Shown here: one piece after another, positions 3,805 to 11,815 of the stretch
How positions within the stretch are numbered: the stretch's first letter is position 1
Layout: each line of letters opens with the position of its first letter
Assembly (NCBI GenBank): GCA_964493715.1
Contig: CAZBPC010000019.1
Span: 1 to 12,614 of the forward strand
DNA: 12,614 nt
Direction of reading: 5' to 3'
Origin: an uncultured archaeon
GTDB taxonomy: Archaea; Asgardarchaeota; Lokiarchaeia; Sigyniarchaeales; SOKP01
Notes under the pieces: generated by a model
Seen by the model: the letters and a program-made list of their open reading frames with translations, nothing else
What the model was told of the DNA's origin: nothing
Databases searched by the model: none
Translations under genes and position numbers: made by a program

Positions 3805-3980
3805 GATTGGAAAATTGTTGAGTCCTATTAGAATTTAATTAATAAGGTGCGACTCAGAGTTGAAGTGATTAAGATCTCTTAAAATTTCTTTTTTAATGAA
3901 AAATTTAAAATTCAACATATTTAATTATTATACGTTAATCTATTGATGAAATCGATGTCAATTGATATTGAATATCGTTC

Positions 3981-4000
3981 AAAAAAAGAGAAAAATAAAT
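3981..4000 (-). terminator. Oligo-T archaeal terminator after lpdA
   Basis: The minus strand directly after the stop codon reads ATTTATTTTTCTCTTTTTTT. Confidence 0.5.
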
Positions 4001-5485
4001 TTAATGAAGTTCAGGTCTACCTTTTTTATGAATAGCGAAGCCAAAGACGTCCTCTGCACCTTCGAGAACCATTTCTGACATTGTGGGGTGACTATGGATT
4101 GTTTCACCTATATCATGAACGGTTAGTCCATGTTGCATTGCTAAAGTAATTTCTGCAATCAATTCTGATGCTTCAGCACCAATACAAGAAGCTCCAATTA
4201 CTTTATGGTCTTGTTTATCAACTAAAATCATGATAAATCCTTCTTCGTGCCCTGCACACTTCGCTTTTCCTAAGGACGAGTATGAGAATCGTCCCATTGC
4301 TACATCTATACCTAAATCTTTTGCGTGTTTTCTACGTAGGCCAACAGAGCCAATATTTGGGCTCGTAAAAATAGTAGCAGGGACAACTTTATAATCAGTA
4401 GTTCTTTCCTTTATAGGAAATCCTCCAATACTTGCAAGAGCATTTGCTATGGATACATCTCCCATATAACTTGCAATGTGGGCAAGCATTGGTGCTCCAG
4501 ATAAAGCAACATCACCAATTGCATAAATACCTTTAACCGAAGTTTCGCAAGTTTTTTGATCGATTGTTATTGCGCCTCTATTTGTTTCAATACCCAATTC
4601 TTCTAAACCTAAATCTTTAGATTCGCGAGCTCTTCCAATTGAAACCAAGCAGTAATCCGCTTCAAAATACGATTTTTCGGCACTTTCAACTTGATCTCGC
4701 GGAACATCTGCAGAACATGTCGTAGCTTTTACTCCAGAGCCTGTATTTTCAACAGATAATACATTCTGAGATAGTTTTATTTCAATATCCATTGAAACTA
4801 ACTTCTTTTGGAGTTCTTTAATAACCATGGGTTCCTCTGTAGCTATCGGGGTTGATAGATATTCTAACATAGTGACTTTAGAACCAAATGTTGTAAAAAT
4901 ATTGGCAAATTCACACCCAATTACTCCAGCTCCTATAATTAATAATCTTGCTGGGACATTTTTAAAATCAGGGTGTAGTATATCATCACTTGTTAATATT
5001 CTATTATGATCAATGTTGAAGGCGGGAATCAAAGCTGGAGATGATCCAGTTGCAATAATTATTCTCTTTGCTTTTATATTCTTAGTTTCTTCTCCGCTAA
5101 TGGTAATATCAAAACCATCATTCGCATTTCCACCAATGATTTTACCATGACCATTATACACATCGTTCTTCCAAGCTTTTTCAAGTCCAGCAATGCCATC
5201 AACCAATTCTTTAACAACTTTATTCTTTCTTTCTACAGCTTTGGCAAAATCTATCTTCGGTTCACATGTTACCCCAAATTCTTCCGAATGTTCTCTTATT
5301 GACTGGATTAATTCAGCGGATGCATATAGCGCCTTGGTGGGTATGCATCCCCAATTCAAACACGTACCTCCCAAATTTCTCTTTTCAATCAAAGCCACTT
5401 TTGCTCCATATTGCGCTGCTCTCACTGCTGTATGGTATCCTCCCGGACCAGCTCCAATAACTGCAATATCATACATTTCGGTCAT
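4001..5485 (-). CDS. lpdA: Dihydrolipoyl dehydrogenase (E3 / glycine cleavage L-protein)
   Basis: It has the FAD-binding VIGAGPGG, redox disulfide GGTCLNWGCIP, NAD-binding IIGAGVIGCE, YAIGD and catalytic HPTMSE. I moved the start from 5578 to ATG 5485 (MTEMYDIAVIG), which follows a GAGTG SD-like site; the extra 31 codons look non-coding. Confidence 0.93.
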   Translation of the reverse strand: MTEMYDIAVIGAGPGGYHTAVRAAQYGAKVALIEKRNLGGTCLNWGCIPTKALYASAELIQSIREHSEEFGVTCEPKIDFAKAVERKNKVVKELVDGIAGLEKAWKNDVYNGHGKIIGGNANDGFDITISGEETKNIKAKRIIIATGSSPALIPAFNIDHNRILTSDDILHPDFKNVPARLLIIGAGVIGCEFANIFTTFGSKVTMLEYLSTPIATEEPMVIKELQKKLVSMDIEIKLSQNVLSVENTGSGVKATTCSADVPRDQVESAEKSYFEADYCLVSIGRARESKDLGLEELGIETNRGAITIDQKTCETSVKGIYAIGDVALSGAPMLAHIASYMGDVSIANALASIGGFPIKERTTDYKVVPATIFTSPNIGSVGLRRKHAKDLGIDVAMGRFSYSSLGKAKCAGHEEGFIMILVDKQDHKVIGASCIGAEASELIAEITLAMQHGLTVHDIGETIHSHPTMSEMVLEGAEDVFGFAIHKKGRPELH

Positions 5486-5609
5486 TTTACACTCGACTGC
5501 ATTAATTTTTATGTTTTCAAATCTTATAATATTATGGATGAAAATAATACAACCAATTATAAGTTTAATTAAATGCAATGTTTACTTTCTTACATAAGGA
5601 GTATTTAAC

Positions 5610-7064
5610 ATGACAAATTTGTTAATCAAAAATTTGGAGCAATTATTATCTGGCAATTTAACGGAGATAGAATTAAATCTTAGAAAAACCTGTTTAGACT
5701 GTTTGGAAAAAGCAATCCAATCAGTGAGCCCTAGAAAATTGATTGAAAAATCTATAAAAGTTATGAATACCACATTATACATTCAAGATGATGCGTATCC
5801 ATTAGAGAATTTTGAATCTATTTACATCATCGGCGGTGGAAAAGCAAGTGCAGATATGTTTTTTTCTCTTGAAAAACTCCTTTTAAAAATTCCCAATCTC
5901 CAATATCAGGGAATTATAAATGTTCCACAAAATCAAGATGTAGGCACTTATAATATGACAGGCAATGTTCAGATTAATGTTGCATCACACCCAATTCCCA
6001 ATCAATCAGGACTGGAAGGAACAAGAAAGATGATGGAGCTTATTGACAACTCTACCTCCAAGGATCTTATTTTATGCTTAATTTCAGGAGGCGGTTCAGC
6101 TCTTTTACCATTACCAAGATCAGGTATAAAATTGGAGGATTTAAAAATTATGAATTCCCTCCTTATTGCGTCAGGTGCTTCAATTCAAGAAATAAATGTT
6201 GTAAGGAAACATTTATCTTCTATAAAAGGAGGAAATTTAGCGAAAAGAATATATGATAAAAGTGGTGCTATGTTTATAGCGCTAATTATTTCTGATGTCG
6301 TTGGAAATGATTTAGGTTCGATCGCATCTGGACTATCCGTTCCTGATTCATCTACATTTGAAGACACAAAAAGAATTCTTAAAAAATATAAAGTTTGGAA
6401 TAGATCACCCTCTTCCGTGCATAAAGTAATTGAGGAAGGCTTAAACAACCCAAAATTGGAAACTCCTAAAGAAAGGTTTCCCTCGTTTTCACGAGTAAAG
6501 AATTATTTAATTGGTAGCGTTGAATCTGTTATTCAAGTACTTAAACCCATTTTAGAAAGGCAAGAATTCCTTGTTGACTACTTCTCCAATAATTTATCAG
6601 GTGAAGCTAGGAATTTTGGAATTCAATTATCTCAAATCATTCCTAAAAAAATAAAATTTTTTAATGAGAAAGGTATTGAAAAATTAGCACTAATAGCTAC
6701 GGGAGAACTTACAGTTACAATTAAAGGGGAAGGAGTTGGTGGTAGAAATCAAGAAATGTTACTAAGTTATTCAAATGAAGTTAAAAATTCTAAATTTGAA
6801 TATAACCATGTAATTATAGGTGCAAATCTTGACGGTCTTGAAGGTAATAGTAATGCGATGGGTTGTTTAATAGATAATGACACGATCTCTAAAATTTCGT
6901 ATCAAAAAATTGATCCAGCGCGATTTCTTGATGATAATAATTCAAATGCGTTCTTTAAGGCAATCGGAACTGAAATAATATCAGGTCCTACTGGATGTAA
7001 TGTAAATGATTTAGTTTTAATCTTAATCACTCAAAAAAAGAAAAATAATGGAAAAAAAAATTAA
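5610..7064 (+). CDS. Class-II glycerate kinase (DUF4147 + MOFRL domains; GckA/TtuD-like)
   Basis: Motifs include IGGGKAS, ASHPIP, LISGGGSAL, INVVRKHLSSIKGG, ISDVVG, IASG, GELTV, GGRNQE and GPTGCNVND. RBS AAGGAG is at 5596-5601. Confidence 0.93.
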   Translation: MTNLLIKNLEQLLSGNLTEIELNLRKTCLDCLEKAIQSVSPRKLIEKSIKVMNTTLYIQDDAYPLENFESIYIIGGGKASADMFFSLEKLLLKIPNLQYQGIINVPQNQDVGTYNMTGNVQINVASHPIPNQSGLEGTRKMMELIDNSTSKDLILCLISGGGSALLPLPRSGIKLEDLKIMNSLLIASGASIQEINVVRKHLSSIKGGNLAKRIYDKSGAMFIALIISDVVGNDLGSIASGLSVPDSSTFEDTKRILKKYKVWNRSPSSVHKVIEEGLNNPKLETPKERFPSFSRVKNYLIGSVESVIQVLKPILERQEFLVDYFSNNLSGEARNFGIQLSQIIPKKIKFFNEKGIEKLALIATGELTVTIKGEGVGGRNQEMLLSYSNEVKNSKFEYNHVIIGANLDGLEGNSNAMGCLIDNDTISKISYQKIDPARFLDDNNSNAFFKAIGTEIISGPTGCNVNDLVLILITQKKKNNGKKN

Positions 7065-7242
7065 AATTAAAGGAATAGGAAAAGATTTCATAATAACTTG
7101 TCCTGTATGTGGATATAGTTTCAGAGGTTTAGATCCTACATCTAAAAAAACAACAAAAACTTGTCCCATGTGCGGATATAAATTCATTGAGCCTCATTTT
7201 CTTCCAGATGGAAAAGACAACTTCGAAAAAAGATTTCTATGA
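7048..7242 (+). CDS. Small Zn-ribbon protein (CPxCG-type), 64 aa
   Basis: It has two knuckles, CPVCGYSF and CPMCGYKF, and overlaps the glycerate kinase 3' end by 17 nt. Confidence 0.8.
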   Translation: MEKKIKIKGIGKDFIITCPVCGYSFRGLDPTSKKTTKTCPMCGYKFIEPHFLPDGKDNFEKRFL

Positions 7243-7272
7243 TCTAACTCCGACAAATTTTGATAGTATATA

Positions 7273-7290
7273 TAAAAAAGCTTTTTTAAT
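7273..7290 (+). promoter_or_regulatory. Possible BRE/TATA promoter (within a 16-bp palindrome) upstream of the 722-aa gene
   Basis: In TAAAAAAGCTTTTTTAAT, a purine run is followed by a TTTTAAT TATA-like box. Positions 7273-7288 form a perfect palindrome. It could instead terminate the upstream genes. Confidence 0.3.
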
Positions 7291-7383
7291 TATAGTAAGT
7301 ATATTATTACACACATGAAATTATTTTATCAAATGATAAATAAATTCTAATAATTTAACAAAAATATAAAAAAATGATGAACA

Positions 7384-9552
7384 ATGGCACGAAAGAAAGA
7401 TAAGAAAATTCACGAAGAACCAACACGGGGTTATGGTTGGGATGCCTCTGAAGCAAAGGAAGAAAAAATCGCTGAAGGATTAAAACGTTCACAAATGGAT
7501 GATGGAAAGGTCACTTTGATTGATAGAGATCTATCAACTCCCGTGATTGAAACTTATGATGCTGATACTGGCGCTTTAGAAGGGTCCATCTTATTAAAAG
7601 ATGGAAATCGTGAGGGTTTATTAGGTTTAGTAAAGATTGTTGAAAATGTAAGTGTAGAATTAGATCATGACTCTAACATTGAAACTATGAACTTTCAAGG
7701 AAATCTAAACATAGAAAATCCCAGTAAGAAAGATAGAATCTGGGATATTGACATCACGCTTAAAAATATTGATAAGACCGATTTAGCTTCAGAAAATATT
7801 AAAATCCGAGAATTGGGTACTGACGATGCAACAAATGTTGAAACTCACAAATTTCAGATTAAAGCTGAAGTTCCTAATCTACTTTTAGTAAAAGAATACG
7901 TTAATACCCTCCCAAATGCAGATGATGTTTTAACTGTGAAGGATATTGAAGCAGATCTGGGAAAATTAAAAAATAAAACGAGTAAAGCGGGTTCTAAGGT
8001 AAAAGCTATAGTTAAAGAAGAAGAGGAAGAAGAGGAAGAAGAGGAAGAAGAGGAAGAAGAACCAGAAGAAGATGAAACTTATCCCGATGGAGGAACGAAT
8101 GCATCAGAATATTCCTTAGAATCATTTGGAATCTCCATTGATAAAGAGAACGTAGTTTGGTTTGCAATTGGGTTACGCTCTATGTTTGAAAAAGTGATAT
8201 CTAACGTTAAAATAGTTAAGTCAATCCCATCCGATTTCAAAGGAACAATGATTAGGAACACTTCTGTAGGACGCGCAGATGTGAAAGGTGATAAGGTAGT
8301 ATGGACTATCGATAAATTAGAACCAGATCGTACGGCTGTTTTGAAGTTTACAAGCAGTATCACTGTATCTGATATAGCAGCCCGAAATACAGGTCCAATT
8401 GAGATTACATACCAAGGATCCTCGTCATTTGCCGGAGGTTTAGATATTGATAAATATGATGCTTATACTCGAAACCGATTCTATGTTGATACAGTAGAAC
8501 TTGATGCAGAGCCAGGGAAATGGGATTGCAAATTAGTATTTGAAAATGCATCTGAATTTATTATTCAATTATTTAATGCGGATGTATACTCCCCTGATGA
8601 TGAAAAAACCAAATTTGTAGATATTGATCCAAATGACGTCTCACTCCTTCCTGCAGGCGCACAATGGCACTCTAACAAATGGAAGTTCGAATCTGAAGAA
8701 TATCCTGCTTTTAGAAAGAAACTTGAGTTCAGAGTCATGCCTGATTTTCAAACTCTTGTTAATGGTTCAACAACTATCTCAGATGTTATTTTAGAAATTG
8801 CCAGCATGACAGGAACTATGTCTTATGATATTGATCAAGTACCTACTTACAAGGAGAAAGATCTTATTGCCACGCTTAAAATTGTAAACAATGGCTCTGC
8901 TCCATTAAATGAAGTAAAGGTCACCCAACAGTATTTCACTGACGAATTTCAACCTCCAAAAGCTAATGAAATTAAGTTATTATGGAATGAAAGTGAACTT
9001 GAATTAGGTTCTAATGCTGTTTCTTTTGATGGGAACGTATTTAAAATCTCATTAAAGGACTTGAGAAATTCAGAAACAGGAATGTTCCAACCAGAATCCA
9101 GTTTACAATTTGAATATCCAATCCATTGTGTGAATCCTGTCCAAGATGCGAAGTTTGAGTCAGAAATAATCTATAACGCCAATACTTTTCCTATGTCTTC
9201 TGAATTAGAATTTATACCTGAAGTACCTGTTGTAGAAGCACTTCACTTGAGAAGAAGATTCAGAATTGGAAAAGAAGTTGTGCCTATTGGTAAATTAGGA
9301 CATTATAAGATTATTTTATTAGTAGAAAACATTGGTACAGCTGCTCTTCAGAACTTAGTTTTAATGGATAAAGTACCAGATAGTTTTGAATATGGTACTT
9401 ATTCGAAAAAACCAGAGATTACAGATGAAGTTGGAAGTGATACACTCAAATGGACGATCCAAAAGCTTGAAGCCGAAGAACGATTAGAAATCACATATGA
9501 GATAAACGGTACTGGCGAATATAGTCCCAGCGATGCTCAATTAGGATTATAA
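7384..9552 (+). CDS. Multi-beta-sandwich protein: mu-homology-domain-like N-terminal half plus DUF11/Ig-like repeats, with a poly-Glu insert
   Basis: This 722-aa ORF has no signal peptide or TM helix. C-terminal repeats match the DUF11 pattern (TLKIVNNGSAPLNEV; GKEV...YKIILLVENIGTAALQNLVLMDKVP...LKWTI..L...E...ITY). Residues ~82-360 follow mu-adaptin/delta-COP MHD motifs in order. The CDS itself is secure; the MHD call is by eye. Confidence 0.6.
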   Translation: MARKKDKKIHEEPTRGYGWDASEAKEEKIAEGLKRSQMDDGKVTLIDRDLSTPVIETYDADTGALEGSILLKDGNREGLLGLVKIVENVSVELDHDSNIETMNFQGNLNIENPSKKDRIWDIDITLKNIDKTDLASENIKIRELGTDDATNVETHKFQIKAEVPNLLLVKEYVNTLPNADDVLTVKDIEADLGKLKNKTSKAGSKVKAIVKEEEEEEEEEEEEEEEPEEDETYPDGGTNASEYSLESFGISIDKENVVWFAIGLRSMFEKVISNVKIVKSIPSDFKGTMIRNTSVGRADVKGDKVVWTIDKLEPDRTAVLKFTSSITVSDIAARNTGPIEITYQGSSSFAGGLDIDKYDAYTRNRFYVDTVELDAEPGKWDCKLVFENASEFIIQLFNADVYSPDDEKTKFVDIDPNDVSLLPAGAQWHSNKWKFESEEYPAFRKKLEFRVMPDFQTLVNGSTTISDVILEIASMTGTMSYDIDQVPTYKEKDLIATLKIVNNGSAPLNEVKVTQQYFTDEFQPPKANEIKLLWNESELELGSNAVSFDGNVFKISLKDLRNSETGMFQPESSLQFEYPIHCVNPVQDAKFESEIIYNANTFPMSSELEFIPEVPVVEALHLRRRFRIGKEVVPIGKLGHYKIILLVENIGTAALQNLVLMDKVPDSFEYGTYSKKPEITDEVGSDTLKWTIQKLEAEERLEITYEINGTGEYSPSDAQLGL
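8017..8061 (+). repeat. 9-bp tandem repeat (GAAGAAGAG)x4 + GAAGAAGAA encoding 15 consecutive Glu
   Basis: Read directly from the sequence; it is in frame in the 722-aa ORF (aa 212-226). Confidence 0.95.
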
Positions 9553-9566
9553 TTTTTTTTTTTTTT
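9553..9566 (+). terminator. T14 oligo-T terminator
   Basis: Fourteen consecutive T directly follow the TAA at 9550-9552. Confidence 0.7.
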
Positions 9567-9700
9567 ACTAATTTTATTAACACAAGGATTAAATATTTTT
9601 TAGATAACTTCTATATTTATAGATAAGTGGATTATTTATTTGTAATAGTAATTAAATTATAAGAAAAATTCTATAACCTCAATTATTATTTTTCATAATT

Positions 9701-11359
9701 ATGTCAACGTTAAAAAAGCGATTTAATTTAAAGTGGCTGTTTGAAGCTCCGGAAGCTGTACTAACGTGCTCTACTTTAAAATGCGATGAAAAGCGATTCT
9801 TTGTTTTTGGTGGACATGATAAAACGCTCTACTTGATGGATGATGAAATGCAAATATTAGATAGCGTTTCATTTGATGGATGGTGTCGTTGCAGTTATCC
9901 GATCGACATCACGGGTGATGGATGCGATGAGATATTAGTAGGAGCTGGTGATGGTAATTTTCTCGTTTTGAAATTAGTCAAAGGGATAAATAAACTAGCA
10001 ACCATAATGAATTATCGCTCTTCTGGGAAGATCTTGTGTGTAACTGCGGGAGATTTAACGAATGATGGGAATATCGAATTAATTCATTGTGGTGAAGACA
10101 AAACAGTAAAAATCTTTGATAATATTGATGCAATATCTCCTATACATGTATTATATTATGATTCTTGGGTGACTTCTTGTGCTTCTGGATGTTTAAAATT
10201 ATCTGACTTTAAAGATCCTCTCCAAGGATTAATTATAGGAACAAAGAATGGAATGTTACAAATGATACAAATAAAAGAAGGAACACCAGATATAATATGG
10301 AAACGAGAACTTGAATCCCAAATTAATGCTATTGACATTGGAGATGTAGTAAATAATGGGTATAATGATATTATTGTTGGCTCAGATGATTCAAAGATAA
10401 GAATTTATAATGCAGACGGAGAAGAACTTAATTCTATCGAAATTGAAAGCGGTCGACCGATTTCAATCCGAGTCGCCGATATAGATGGAGATAATGCCAA
10501 AGAAATCATTGTTGGTTGCTCAGATGGAACTTTACGTATATATCATAATCAACAAATAGACTCAAAAAACTTTGAACTGAAATGGAAAACTACTATATCA
10601 AATTCAATAAAAATTGTCTCTCCGATGTTGGATTCTGAGAGGGGTCTAATTTACATAATTTTTGGAGGGTATGATAGAAGTTTGAGGTGCGTTTCTGATT
10701 TTGAATGGGGAGAAAAACCAAAATTAGATGTACCCGATAAAATGGGTCCCATTAAAAGTGAAAAACCTAAAGCTATTGAAGAGGAATTAAAACCACCTGG
10801 AGAAAAAAAGACAGTTCCAACAAATCTTCGAGACTATATTTTTAAAATTTTAGATGAAACAAGGGTCATTGATGGAGTTACAAAAGAGTTAGAGAAGATT
10901 GGGTATTTAAAAGAAAATATAAAAAATGAATTTGAATTAATGAAAAATCAAAAACCTGGCACTTATGAGAAGATAACATATTCTTTATGGAGCCTTTCTG
11001 AAGAGGAAATTAGTCCTGGAGGAGTTATACAAGAACCAAAAGCTTTTGTTAATATTAAAACTGAAATTGTTGAAGAGACCACTTCAAAAGGAGCTGATTT
11101 GATTCGTGCATTACAAAAAGAAAAAGCACCAGATAAATCTGAAGAACAATTGAAAATTGACGAAAATCTCAGGTACATTATTATGCATAATCTCGAGAAA
11201 CTCAAATTGATTCCCACCAGAACAAAATTGATCAATGAAGTAACCATTTTAGGCTACAGTGAATCAGATGTTGAAGAACAAGTAGATTTGTTAAAAGAAC
11301 ATGGTATCATACAATATTCCAAGTCAAATCCCAAAGGTTGGCGATTAACACCCCAATAA
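9701..11359 (+). CDS. 7-bladed beta-propeller (FG-GAP/WD40-like; BBS2/ITFG2-like) with two C-terminal winged-helix-like repeats
   Basis: Seven blade motifs are visible: FGGHDKTLY, VGAGDGNFL, HCGEDKTVK, IGTKNGMLQ, VGSDDSKIR, VGCSDGTLR and FGGYDRSLR. Four are preceded by DxxxDG/NG-type acidic loops. A helical repeat occurs at aa ~375-432 and ~489-550. There is no signal peptide. Confidence 0.8.
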   Translation: MSTLKKRFNLKWLFEAPEAVLTCSTLKCDEKRFFVFGGHDKTLYLMDDEMQILDSVSFDGWCRCSYPIDITGDGCDEILVGAGDGNFLVLKLVKGINKLATIMNYRSSGKILCVTAGDLTNDGNIELIHCGEDKTVKIFDNIDAISPIHVLYYDSWVTSCASGCLKLSDFKDPLQGLIIGTKNGMLQMIQIKEGTPDIIWKRELESQINAIDIGDVVNNGYNDIIVGSDDSKIRIYNADGEELNSIEIESGRPISIRVADIDGDNAKEIIVGCSDGTLRIYHNQQIDSKNFELKWKTTISNSIKIVSPMLDSERGLIYIIFGGYDRSLRCVSDFEWGEKPKLDVPDKMGPIKSEKPKAIEEELKPPGEKKTVPTNLRDYIFKILDETRVIDGVTKELEKIGYLKENIKNEFELMKNQKPGTYEKITYSLWSLSEEEISPGGVIQEPKAFVNIKTEIVEETTSKGADLIRALQKEKAPDKSEEQLKIDENLRYIIMHNLEKLKLIPTRTKLINEVTILGYSESDVEEQVDLLKEHGIIQYSKSNPKGWRLTPQ

Positions 11360-11377
11360 ATTTATGCTCGGCTAATA

Positions 11378-11815
11378 TTAATTAGAAAAAAAAACTGGAA
11401 TCTCATCCTGAAATGGTGAAAACTGATCTAACTCCGTAAAATCCTTGTTCGAATATTTTGATATGAAAGATTCTATTATAGGTTCAGATTTCTCTAAGAA
11501 TTTCTTGACTAATTTATCTTGATCTTTTTTCCTTTTATCTGTAAGCCCGTATAAAATTATAGTTTCTGCACAATTACAGTCTGAAGCTTTAATTTCACGT
11601 GGTTTAAAAATGAACAAGATATTTTTTGATTCTAAATACTCTAACGATATGTTATTGAAAGCATTTTTAGCGAACGTATTGATGGCAGAAATAAATGCAC
11701 CTCTTAAATCCTTATTTGGATCTTTTGAACCTTTGGATTCTGGAATCTCCTTAAATATATACTTAACTAAAATAAATCCGCGGAATACAATTCCGAGTTC
11801 ATATAATTCTTTCAT
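11378..11815 (-). CDS. Standalone longin-like domain protein (Asgard type)
   Basis: It shows the beta-beta-alpha-beta-beta-beta-alpha-alpha pattern: LYELGIVFRGFILVKY, DLRGAFISAINTFAKNAF (typical LxSGFxSAIxxFA helix), LEYLE..ILFIF..IILYGLTD and FISKY...FSPFQDEI. Confidence 0.75.
   Translation of the reverse strand: MKELYELGIVFRGFILVKYIFKEIPESKGSKDPNKDLRGAFISAINTFAKNAFNNISLEYLESKNILFIFKPREIKASDCNCAETIILYGLTDKRKKDQDKLVKKFLEKSEPIIESFISKYSNKDFTELDQFSPFQDEIPVFFSN

Follow-up and report, generated by a model that had tools for sequence, protein, structure and literature searches.

We analysed a window of 12,614 nucleotides, the whole of contig 19 (CAZBPC010000019.1) of a lokiarchaeial genome of 3.68 Mb in 160 contigs; the GC content is ∼30–37%, and close relatives of the encoded proteins carry the source labels Promethearchaeota or Lokiarchaeota archaeon. 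Three consecutive open reading frames (ORFs) of this window are the subject of the present work. P0001 (7384–9552, + strand, 722 residues) encodes a predicted mu-homology domain (MHD) fold followed by a pilin-like Ig domain and a DUF11 domain. P0002 (9701–11359, + strand, 552 residues) encodes a FG-GAP-type β-propeller (residues ∼1–345) and a C-terminal tail with two winged-helix-like modules. P0003 (11378–11815, − strand, convergent, 145 residues) encodes a predicted stand-alone longin fold and is a positional neighbor in the backbone synteny described below. NCBIfam gave nothing informative for the three proteins. A sequence-only reading of the window had listed three consecutive ORFs at the same positions, the third one convergent, with a run of 14 thymines (T14) between the first two; the ORF calls confirmed this arrangement and the T14 run was found at 9553–9566 (+ strand), immediately 3′ of the P0001 stop codon. 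The same reading had proposed that the three genes form one unit in which the longin and the MHD protein are the parts of a split mu-adaptin.

To obtain a model of P0001 we used AlphaFold2 with an alignment (A3) of 116 sequences, composed of order-level homologues and representatives from a library of 1.84 billion proteins. The family profile of P0001 matched 3,653 proteins of this library at E ≤ 1e-3 and 335 at E ≤ 1e-30. The model is all-β, with a predicted local distance difference test score (pLDDT) of 89.6 and a predicted template-modeling score of 0.77. Structural alignment of the model assigned an MHD fold to residues 76–467 (7609–8784, + strand), with additional N-terminal strands from approximately residue 42. 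With VIA-align, residues 77–467 were superimposed on AP2 mu2 169–435 (5wrk_A) at Z 17.1 and a root-mean-square deviation (rmsd) of 3.3 Å for 225 of 245 residues, and the same region matched mu1, mu3, mu4, delta-COP and SGIP1 at Z 13.6–15.4. In a second, Foldseek-independent search of 48,161 representative chains, ranks 1–7 were again all MHDs; Syp1 was also found, at Z 11.9. When the whole model was submitted to Foldseek, generic multi-Ig chains came out on top (PrgB, integrin alpha and central-apparatus proteins, rmsd 18–54 Å) and AP2 mu appeared only at rank 46 with an rmsd of 5.5 Å; rigid-body re-alignment was needed to reveal the MHD match beyond the Foldseek ranking. No non-MHD chain spanned residues 76–467 of the model at low rmsd in either structure search. 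The whole two-subdomain fold is common to the P0001 model and the MHDs of mu1–4, delta-COP and the muniscins (5wrk, 4en2, 4ikn, 4mdr, 4o8q, 5awr, and 3g9h), at Z 17.1–11.9 with 208–228 aligned residues and an rmsd of 2.7–4.2 Å, and at just 9–17% identity. We concluded that residues ∼76–467 of P0001 are predicted to adopt a complete two-lobed MHD fold.

The sequence signal for this domain is weaker than the structural one. Pfam Adap_comp_sub (PF00928) matched residues 255–363 of P0001 with E 7.8e-6 and 25.9 bits, under the gathering cut-off of 31.6 bits; the match reached 20.5 bits in a six-frame search of the genome, and the relatives P0244 (31.2 bits) and P0269 (30.6 bits) fell slightly short of the cut-off. 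A precomputed PF00928 match was present in 38 of 120 listed P0001 orthologues. The profile of 20 family members (alignment A1) detected AP2 mu (2.6e-4) and AP1 mu1 (1.2e-3) among PDB sequences, the next match being at E 1.1, and the family profile gave a weak collinear match to mu2 301–414. This signal overlaps with that of DUF11. A scan of seven diverse family members called the stretch corresponding to P0001 residues ∼250–340 DUF11 in five of them (for example P0244 252–335 at 2.3e-14). PF00928 reached E ≤ 0.1 in no more than two members, and each of these scores fell slightly short of the cut-off. In the LPXTG-anchored bacterial protein P0349 (2,232 residues, 16 DUF11 repeats), PF00928 scored 46.8 bits at residues 2077–2155, which is above the cut-off, and giant DUF11-repeat proteins match positions 240–326 of the family profile up to 41 times. 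Isolated PF00928 matches in prokaryotes thus need a structural check, because a DUF11 repeat of P0349 can exceed the threshold. With regard to the prokaryotic DUF11/CARDB Ig-like repeats (PF01345), the PF00928-giving stretch of the P0001 family scores better as DUF11 in relatives, but unlike those repeats the P0001 sandwich is predicted to sit within a two-lobed MHD architecture. The idea that one MHD lobe is a DUF11-type sandwich fits these results and is unproven.

Within the MHD, an acidic insert with a run of ∼16 Glu (residues 180–250; 7921–8133, + strand) is looped out of the fold. It contains 27 D+E vs. 8 K+R, was modeled at low confidence (pLDDT 51–58 over blocks 201–240), and is absent from homologues in other families of the order (alignment A1). 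The MHD is followed by a pilin-type Ig-like domain at residues 472–623 (8797–9252, + strand), assigned by structural matches to BcpA (3kpt_A, Z 14.1), SpaD (4hss_B, Z 14.0) and RrgB (Z 13.7) over ∼135 residues at 2.5–2.7 Å, and then by a C-terminal DUF11 β-sandwich at residues 626–712 (9259–9519, + strand; model strands 626–709), for which Pfam PF01345 (DUF11) gave a match to residues 645–711 with E 1.4e-8. Residues 1–40 of the AlphaFold2 model have no longin fold and consist of low-confidence structure with one short helix. P0001 differs from eukaryotic MHD proteins in that neither a longin at the N-terminus nor an F-BAR or any further eukaryotic partner domain is present, and from known MHDs in its 70-residue acidic insert, the Ig and DUF11 domains after the MHD, and the acidity of the whole protein (pI 4.58 overall, 4.05–6.57 in all segments). 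Such acidity would argue against mu2-style binding of anionic lipids.

Other members of the MHD family were noted in the course of the searches. A second paralogue of 701 residues is encoded on contig 6 of the window genome (L041:7762–9867), a locus search with P0001 alone found one close relative (L053), and a form of ∼600 residues is the common one across the Asgard phylum. The distant member P0305 carries N-terminal proline-rich repeats of PPAPPGMPPAPP-type, which may matter given the Asgard actin regulators; proline-rich motifs of this kind are bound by profilin, SH3 or WW domains.

A role at the cell surface or in adhesion was considered because DUF11, pilin-like Ig and FG-GAP domains are characteristic of extracellular proteins. 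In P0001, the DUF11 and pilin-like domains are similar to Gram-positive pilins and adhesins, and the giant DUF11-repeat surface proteins mentioned above match the family profile. However, a Kyte–Doolittle scan of P0001, P0002 and P0003 revealed no signal peptide, membrane segment or anchor, in agreement with the earlier statement that the three proteins are free of signal peptides, and none of these features was found in the first 60 residues of 15 diverse family members. The N-terminus of P0001 is not hydrophobic (10-residue maximum −0.46), and its 19-residue hydropathy maximum of 1.65 falls within a confidently modeled β-strand stretch of the DUF11 domain. Judged from their sequences, P0001 and P0002 appear to be soluble cytoplasmic proteins, and we regard a cell-surface function as extremely improbable.

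The second protein, P0002, exceeded the Pfam cut-offs of 27 bits each for the BBS7 β-propeller (2.6e-25, 89.8 bits), Itfg2 (4.7e-14, 52.8 bits) and BBS2_Mid (6.1e-13, 49.3 bits), and FG-GAP_3 (1.5e-14) was also above its own cut-off. Among PDB sequences, the P0002 family profile detected BBS2 (4.6e-12), ITFG2 (1.1e-11), BBS7 (7.8e-4), and kaptin (0.015). Seven blade motifs, each with a hydrophobic strand, D-x-D-G-D and (I/L)(I/L)VG, were counted in the translation (a number taken from the sequence only), and the propeller region of the family is conserved to approximately residue 345 (alignment A4). This FG-GAP-like blade motif is common to P0002 and the propellers of BBS2 and BBS7 of the BBSome and ITFG2 of KICSTOR (6vbu, 25ge, and 9o5a). 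In BBS2 and BBS7 the propeller is followed by coiled-coil, GAE and platform regions, whereas the tail of P0002 carries winged-helix-like modules of ∼60 residues each. The last module (residues 481–550; 11141–11350, + strand) has a C-terminal Y-S-(R/K)-S-x-P-(R/K)-G-(Y/W) motif, as detected by a motif scan and in alignments A4 and A6. P0002 relatives contain 0–4 copies of this motif; P0002 has one, and its second, upstream module is without it. A stand-alone propeller paralogue of ∼374 residues is present on contig 32 of the window genome (G000:C32:24911–25165) and is not adjacent to the MHD paralogue. In genome G284, the propeller match (G284:C7:23216–24670) contains six in-frame TAA stops and overlaps the end of the MHD gene, which is encoded on the other strand; decay of this copy or a fault in the assembly may account for this.

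Winged-helix-like modules could also point to a regulatory or nucleic-acid role, in which DNA, RNA or a transcription factor would be the ligand of the P0002 tail, with the MHD protein as an accessory scaffold. The leads for the fold of the tail module were to clusters of winged-helix families (Mnd1, MCM-WHD, DsrD, and RPA_C), and in family f2 a TFIIB-repeat gene (TFB-like, ∼290 residues) immediately precedes the propeller gene on the same strand in 7/7 loci holding it (L016:7579–8451, L017:17391–18308, L018, L021, L022, L023, and L025). A two-gelsolin-repeat gene was also observed near the f2 propeller in six loci. The leads are weak, however: their atlas scores of 0.79–0.84 are all below the lead threshold of 0.9, and the tail-module profile (A6) gave only compositional matches to designed PPR proteins in the PDB, with the MCM winged helix at E 1.4. 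None of the seven TFB paralogues of the window genome is found at the locus, and the number of tail modules varies from 0 to 4. Winged helices of ESCRT-II and similar proteins are reported to bind proteins and not DNA (Makarova et al., 2024). A regulatory role is thus considered very unlikely.

We examined how the MHD and propeller genes are linked in related genomes. Within the genus they are adjacent in 22 of 25 genomes; the other three have no MHD match, and the propeller gene is at a contig end in two of them. Among 60 genomes sampled evenly from the family, 42 contained both genes, 12 neither, 3 the MHD gene only and 3 the propeller gene only. The two genes are adjacent within ∼2.5 kb on one contig in 35 of the 42 genomes with both. 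Of 16 genomes from other genera of the order, 8 have the two genes within 7 kb of each other (L013–L020), and four more had the genes on short separate contigs or only one of them (G036 gave no MHD match); no propeller ortholog was found in the four genomes of family f4. The flanks of the pair differ there: none of the oxidoreductase, glycerate kinase, Zn-ribbon, longin and GCAxxG-protein genes was found near the pair in L013–L020. In genera g13, g14 and part of g16, the corresponding position of the backbone holds neither of the two genes. Across one Lokiarchaeia-type order, the MHD and propeller genes thus show joint retention, loss and relocation, and the simplest reading is a two-gene cassette that entered, or was removed from, the site flanked by the Zn-ribbon and longin genes. 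An apparent local duplication of the MHD gene was observed at G272:C146:3823–8735, where tandem MHD-family genes (3823–5877 and 6501–8735) adjoin the propeller gene.

The backbone into which this candidate cassette is set is composed of ordinary genes. Upstream of the cassette are a glycerate-kinase-like gene (DUF4147/MOFRL; 5610–7064, + strand, identified by Pfam and NCBIfam) and a Zn-ribbon gene of 64 residues (7048–7242, + strand). Pfam and NCBIfam assigned the other genes of the window to ordinary metabolism, namely a class-III aminotransferase, a pyridine-nucleotide disulphide oxidoreductase, the glycerate kinase, the Zn-ribbon protein, and a C_GCAxxG_C_C protein.

The downstream neighbor P0003 gave no Pfam match, and PF01217 (Clat_adaptor_s) gave none at E ≤ 0.1. 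Its model (pLDDT 87.5) has a β-β-α-β-β-β-α-α topology, with DSSP elements E4–11, E14–20, H35–52, E60–62, E66–76, E83–93, H99–121, H129–136, and H139–144. Foldseek returned no match at E ≤ 0.001, and VIA-align gave clear matches to TRAPP (3cue_A, Z 12.6), CPLANE (7q3d_C, 12.2), VAMP7 (11.4), a Lokiarchaeal longin (8yqg_B, 11.3) and Mon1-Ccz1 (11.2). Adaptor subunits were listed (sigma5 at Z 10.4, mu4-N 9.9, sigma3 9.8, and sigma2 9.7) and were not the top matches. P0003 is therefore predicted to be a longin, with likeness at Z 12.6–9.7 over 112–130 residues to the longins of TRAPP (Trs23/Bet5), Fuzzy/Inturned of CPLANE, VAMP7, Mon1-Ccz1, 8yqg and sigma/mu/zeta; it is a stand-alone protein of 145 residues whose best structural matches are not to the sigma/mu/zeta subunits. 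Longin paralogues of P0003 are encoded elsewhere in the genome, on contigs 13 and 28. All three folds named in the sequence-only reading were thus retained: its mu-homology-like β-sandwich became a complete two-lobed MHD fold in the model with a sub-threshold Pfam score, its BBS2/ITFG2-like propeller stands as a blade type (Pfam BBS7, Itfg2 and BBS2_Mid above their cut-offs) without orthology, and its standalone longin agrees with the topology of the model and structural matches of Z 10–12.6.

The genomic distribution of the longin gene is different from that of the MHD and propeller genes. A longin ortholog (E ≤ 1e-8) is present in 60/60 genomes of the family sample and flanks the propeller gene in genera g1, g12, g15, g16, g17, and g18. 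Among the 12 genomes with neither MHD nor propeller gene, 10 have kept the longin ortholog at E ≤ 2e-32. The cassette-free locus L048 reads oxidoreductase, glycerate kinase, Zn-ribbon, longin, isochorismatase-like and GCAxxG protein, with a gap of ∼110 bp between the Zn-ribbon and longin genes; in L045 and L049, which are also cassette-free, the glycerate kinase gene is followed by the longin gene, and in L046 the oxidoreductase gene is. In the order's other families the pair was found to have no longin ortholog nearby, the best matches being on other contigs at E 1e-4 to 3e-9. Because the longin gene holds its position in genomes without MHD and propeller genes, it is not a member of the cassette; in the simplest reading it is a positional neighbor belonging to a conserved backbone of oxidoreductase, glycerate kinase, Zn-ribbon, [cassette] and longin genes. 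Two longin genes in tandem were observed downstream of the propeller gene in genus g16 (G167:C25:8296–9260; also G292:C29 and G293:C31).

These results bear directly on the proposal that the lone longin and the MHD protein are a split mu-adaptin working with the propeller. Mu-adaptins and delta-COP are each composed of a longin half and an MHD half. Consistent with the proposal, the three folds are adjacent in the window genome and in genera g1, g12, g15, g17 and g18 of the family, and the AP mu and sigma longins are among the P0003 matches (Z 9.7–10.4). But the matches to TRAPP, CPLANE, VAMP7 and Mon1-Ccz1 (Z 11.2–12.6) top those to sigma/mu/zeta, the best of them by >1 Z unit, and the longin ortholog stands beside a glycerate-kinase or Zn-ribbon gene where the MHD and propeller genes are absent. 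PF01217 found no sigma-type chain in the genome, though the same model also found nothing in control genomes. A conserved ORF of 85–106 residues lies between the convergent MHD and propeller genes in genera g5 and g10 (L013:3632–3952, L014:10242–10538, and L015:9542–9799); it was rejected as a longin or roadblock candidate, since it aligns as a helical, Lys/Glu-rich protein with a weak match to DUF7367. The three-gene unit and the split mu-adaptin of the sequence-only reading were accordingly not supported, the longin being nearest to TRAPP, CPLANE, VAMP7 and Mon1-Ccz1 and not genetically coupled to the MHD gene, and we consider the three-gene proto-adaptor highly unlikely. The expected adjacency across Asgard genomes held for the MHD and propeller genes within the order; it failed for the longin gene, and in the other Asgard classes the pair itself was not seen linked among the matches listed.

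Several observations weigh against a two-gene functional module. The MHD fold of P0001 is a prediction and not a solved structure, and the MHD sequence signal is not specific: by sequence the region is a DUF11-like sandwich, and the MHD call relies on the predicted architecture. Alignments of P0002 to BBS2 are non-collinear (query 207–278 to chain 125–195, and query 65–174 to chain 166–306), and the three stretches matching ITFG2 are out of order; because of this lack of collinearity the BBS2/ITFG2 likeness of P0002 is at the level of the blade motif and not one of orthology. The spacer between P0001 and P0002 is 148 bp and holds the T14 run, and T-runs of ≥5 were found within 30 nt of the MHD-gene stop codon in 5/5 family loci examined. 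Oligo-T is a terminator signal in archaea. The T14 run probably acts as such a signal and leaves P0001 and P0002 on separate or attenuated transcripts; given the T-runs and the spacer, co-transcription of the MHD and propeller genes is improbable in the family. The two genes are on different contigs in 7 of the 42 family genomes with both, including G292, whose MHD contig is >110 kb, and the 54/60 concordance in presence and absence overstates the number of independent events, as related genomes are not independent samples. Genome G167 (L047) has kept the propeller and longin genes without an MHD ortholog. In L013–L020 the pair is mostly convergent rather than co-directional, with 0–5 unrelated genes between; the 1–5 genes within the pair in L016–L018 include an alpha/beta hydrolase, a DUF1028 protein and a GH26-like protein. 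Finally, the physical interaction of the MHD and propeller proteins is a proposal of ours.

Outside the order the picture is different again. In 249 Asgard genomes sampled, the propeller was found in at least 170 (E ≤ 1e-12) and an MHD-like protein in at least 205 (E ≤ 1e-15). Linkage of the pair was not seen in other Asgard classes among the matches listed, and in the single-contig genomes G267, G261 and G114 of such classes the homologues are >100 kb apart; the MHD homologue of L050 and L051 lies amid unrelated metabolic genes. These findings, too, weigh against a functional module. The neighbors of a full-length MHD homologue in family f30 are a DNA methylase, an amine oxidase and an aldehyde:ferredoxin oxidoreductase. 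The distant homologues in other Asgard classes may be paralogues. In G167 an ORF of 1,925 residues with CARDB/Ig domains was observed upstream of the propeller gene, in the place of the MHD ortholog.

A rival explanation is that the MHD and propeller proteins are functionally unrelated and that the adjacency of their genes is simply left from common descent within one order. Linkage seen only within one order, the T14 run with probably separate transcripts, the convergent arrangement and intervening genes in other families, and the pairs split over contigs all point in this direction. On the other side, the two genes stay together between families although their orientation differs and all flanking genes are replaced, with no other gene of the window accompanying them, and they are jointly missing at the shared backbone position in g13, g14 and part of g16. 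Inherited synteny is in our view the main alternative, a possible explanation but a doubtful one.

We favor, with modest confidence, the explanation that the locus contains a two-gene module of an MHD-fold protein and a propeller protein which would serve as a cytoplasmic protein-interaction module. The two proteins may act in one pathway, most likely as a scaffold for protein–protein interactions. Eukaryotic MHDs bind short peptide motifs and partner proteins, and BBS/ITFG2-type propellers act as docking sites within larger complexes. By analogy, P0001 would be a soluble acidic scaffold, its MHD and Ig surfaces serving as binding sites for short peptide motifs or for partner proteins, and P0002 would offer a second docking platform through its propeller and tail modules. 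Such a scheme resembles the use of MHDs and propellers in eukaryotic adaptor and coat systems. Co-folding of P0001 40–470 and P0003 with P0002 1–350 as partner gave a score of 0.00 twice, which carries no weight either way.

The evidence does not support reading the two-gene module as an assembled proto-adaptor or coat. A search of the genome with PF01602 gave only HEAT-repeat matches and no specific adaptin trunk (the model also matched 3 of 14 control prokaryotes), and a Pfam scan of the window proteins found no GTPase associated with the module at the locus. A bolder proposal is that P0001 and P0002 form an archaeal adaptor-like MHD–propeller heterodimer related to the precursor machinery of eukaryotic cargo adaptors. 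The MHD would read short linear motifs in cytoplasmic tails or partner proteins, the propeller and winged-helix modules would recruit further factors, and the family would document the origin of the MHD from DUF11-type Ig sandwiches that became two-lobed before fusion with a longin. We think this proposal unlikely.

Both domain families have been described before as eukaryote-like candidates of Asgard archaea, and the window adds one more member to them. Asgard PF00928 candidates, which are the same kind of protein as P0001, were already published; the part of that account available to us gives no structure, domain architecture or gene neighborhood for them (Eme et al., 2023, Nature 618:992; PMC10307638). 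A BBS7/ITFG2 cluster is among the catalogue-matched Asgard–eukaryote clusters in a 2026 preprint (bioRxiv 10.64898/2026.10.28.762692). Adaptin appendage domains and many longins were reported in Asgard archaea, with no MHD described in the portions of these papers that we could consult (Liu et al., 2020; Makarova et al., 2024). Our literature search, to which supplementary tables such as Supplementary Table 3 of Eme et al. (2023) did not belong, found no published description of an MHD–propeller gene pair and no paper linking “Asgard” with “mu homology domain.” As far as the literature searched goes, the mobile two-gene cassette of MHD and propeller genes without the longin gene is new, and it is well supported by the gene-neighborhood comparisons. 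To our knowledge, the MHD is usually regarded as a eukaryotic invention.

The locus bears on the origin of eukaryotic vesicle adaptors and coats. Counting Asgard “adaptor subunits” from domain matches and simple adjacency overstates how far such machinery is assembled, since the longin proved to be a bystander here and DUF11 sequences share the Pfam “mu” signal. A cytoplasmic lokiarchaeial protein with a complete and confidently predicted MHD fold, whose gene moves together with a BBS/ITFG2-type propeller gene, provides a concrete testable pair of proteins for cultured Lokiarchaeia.

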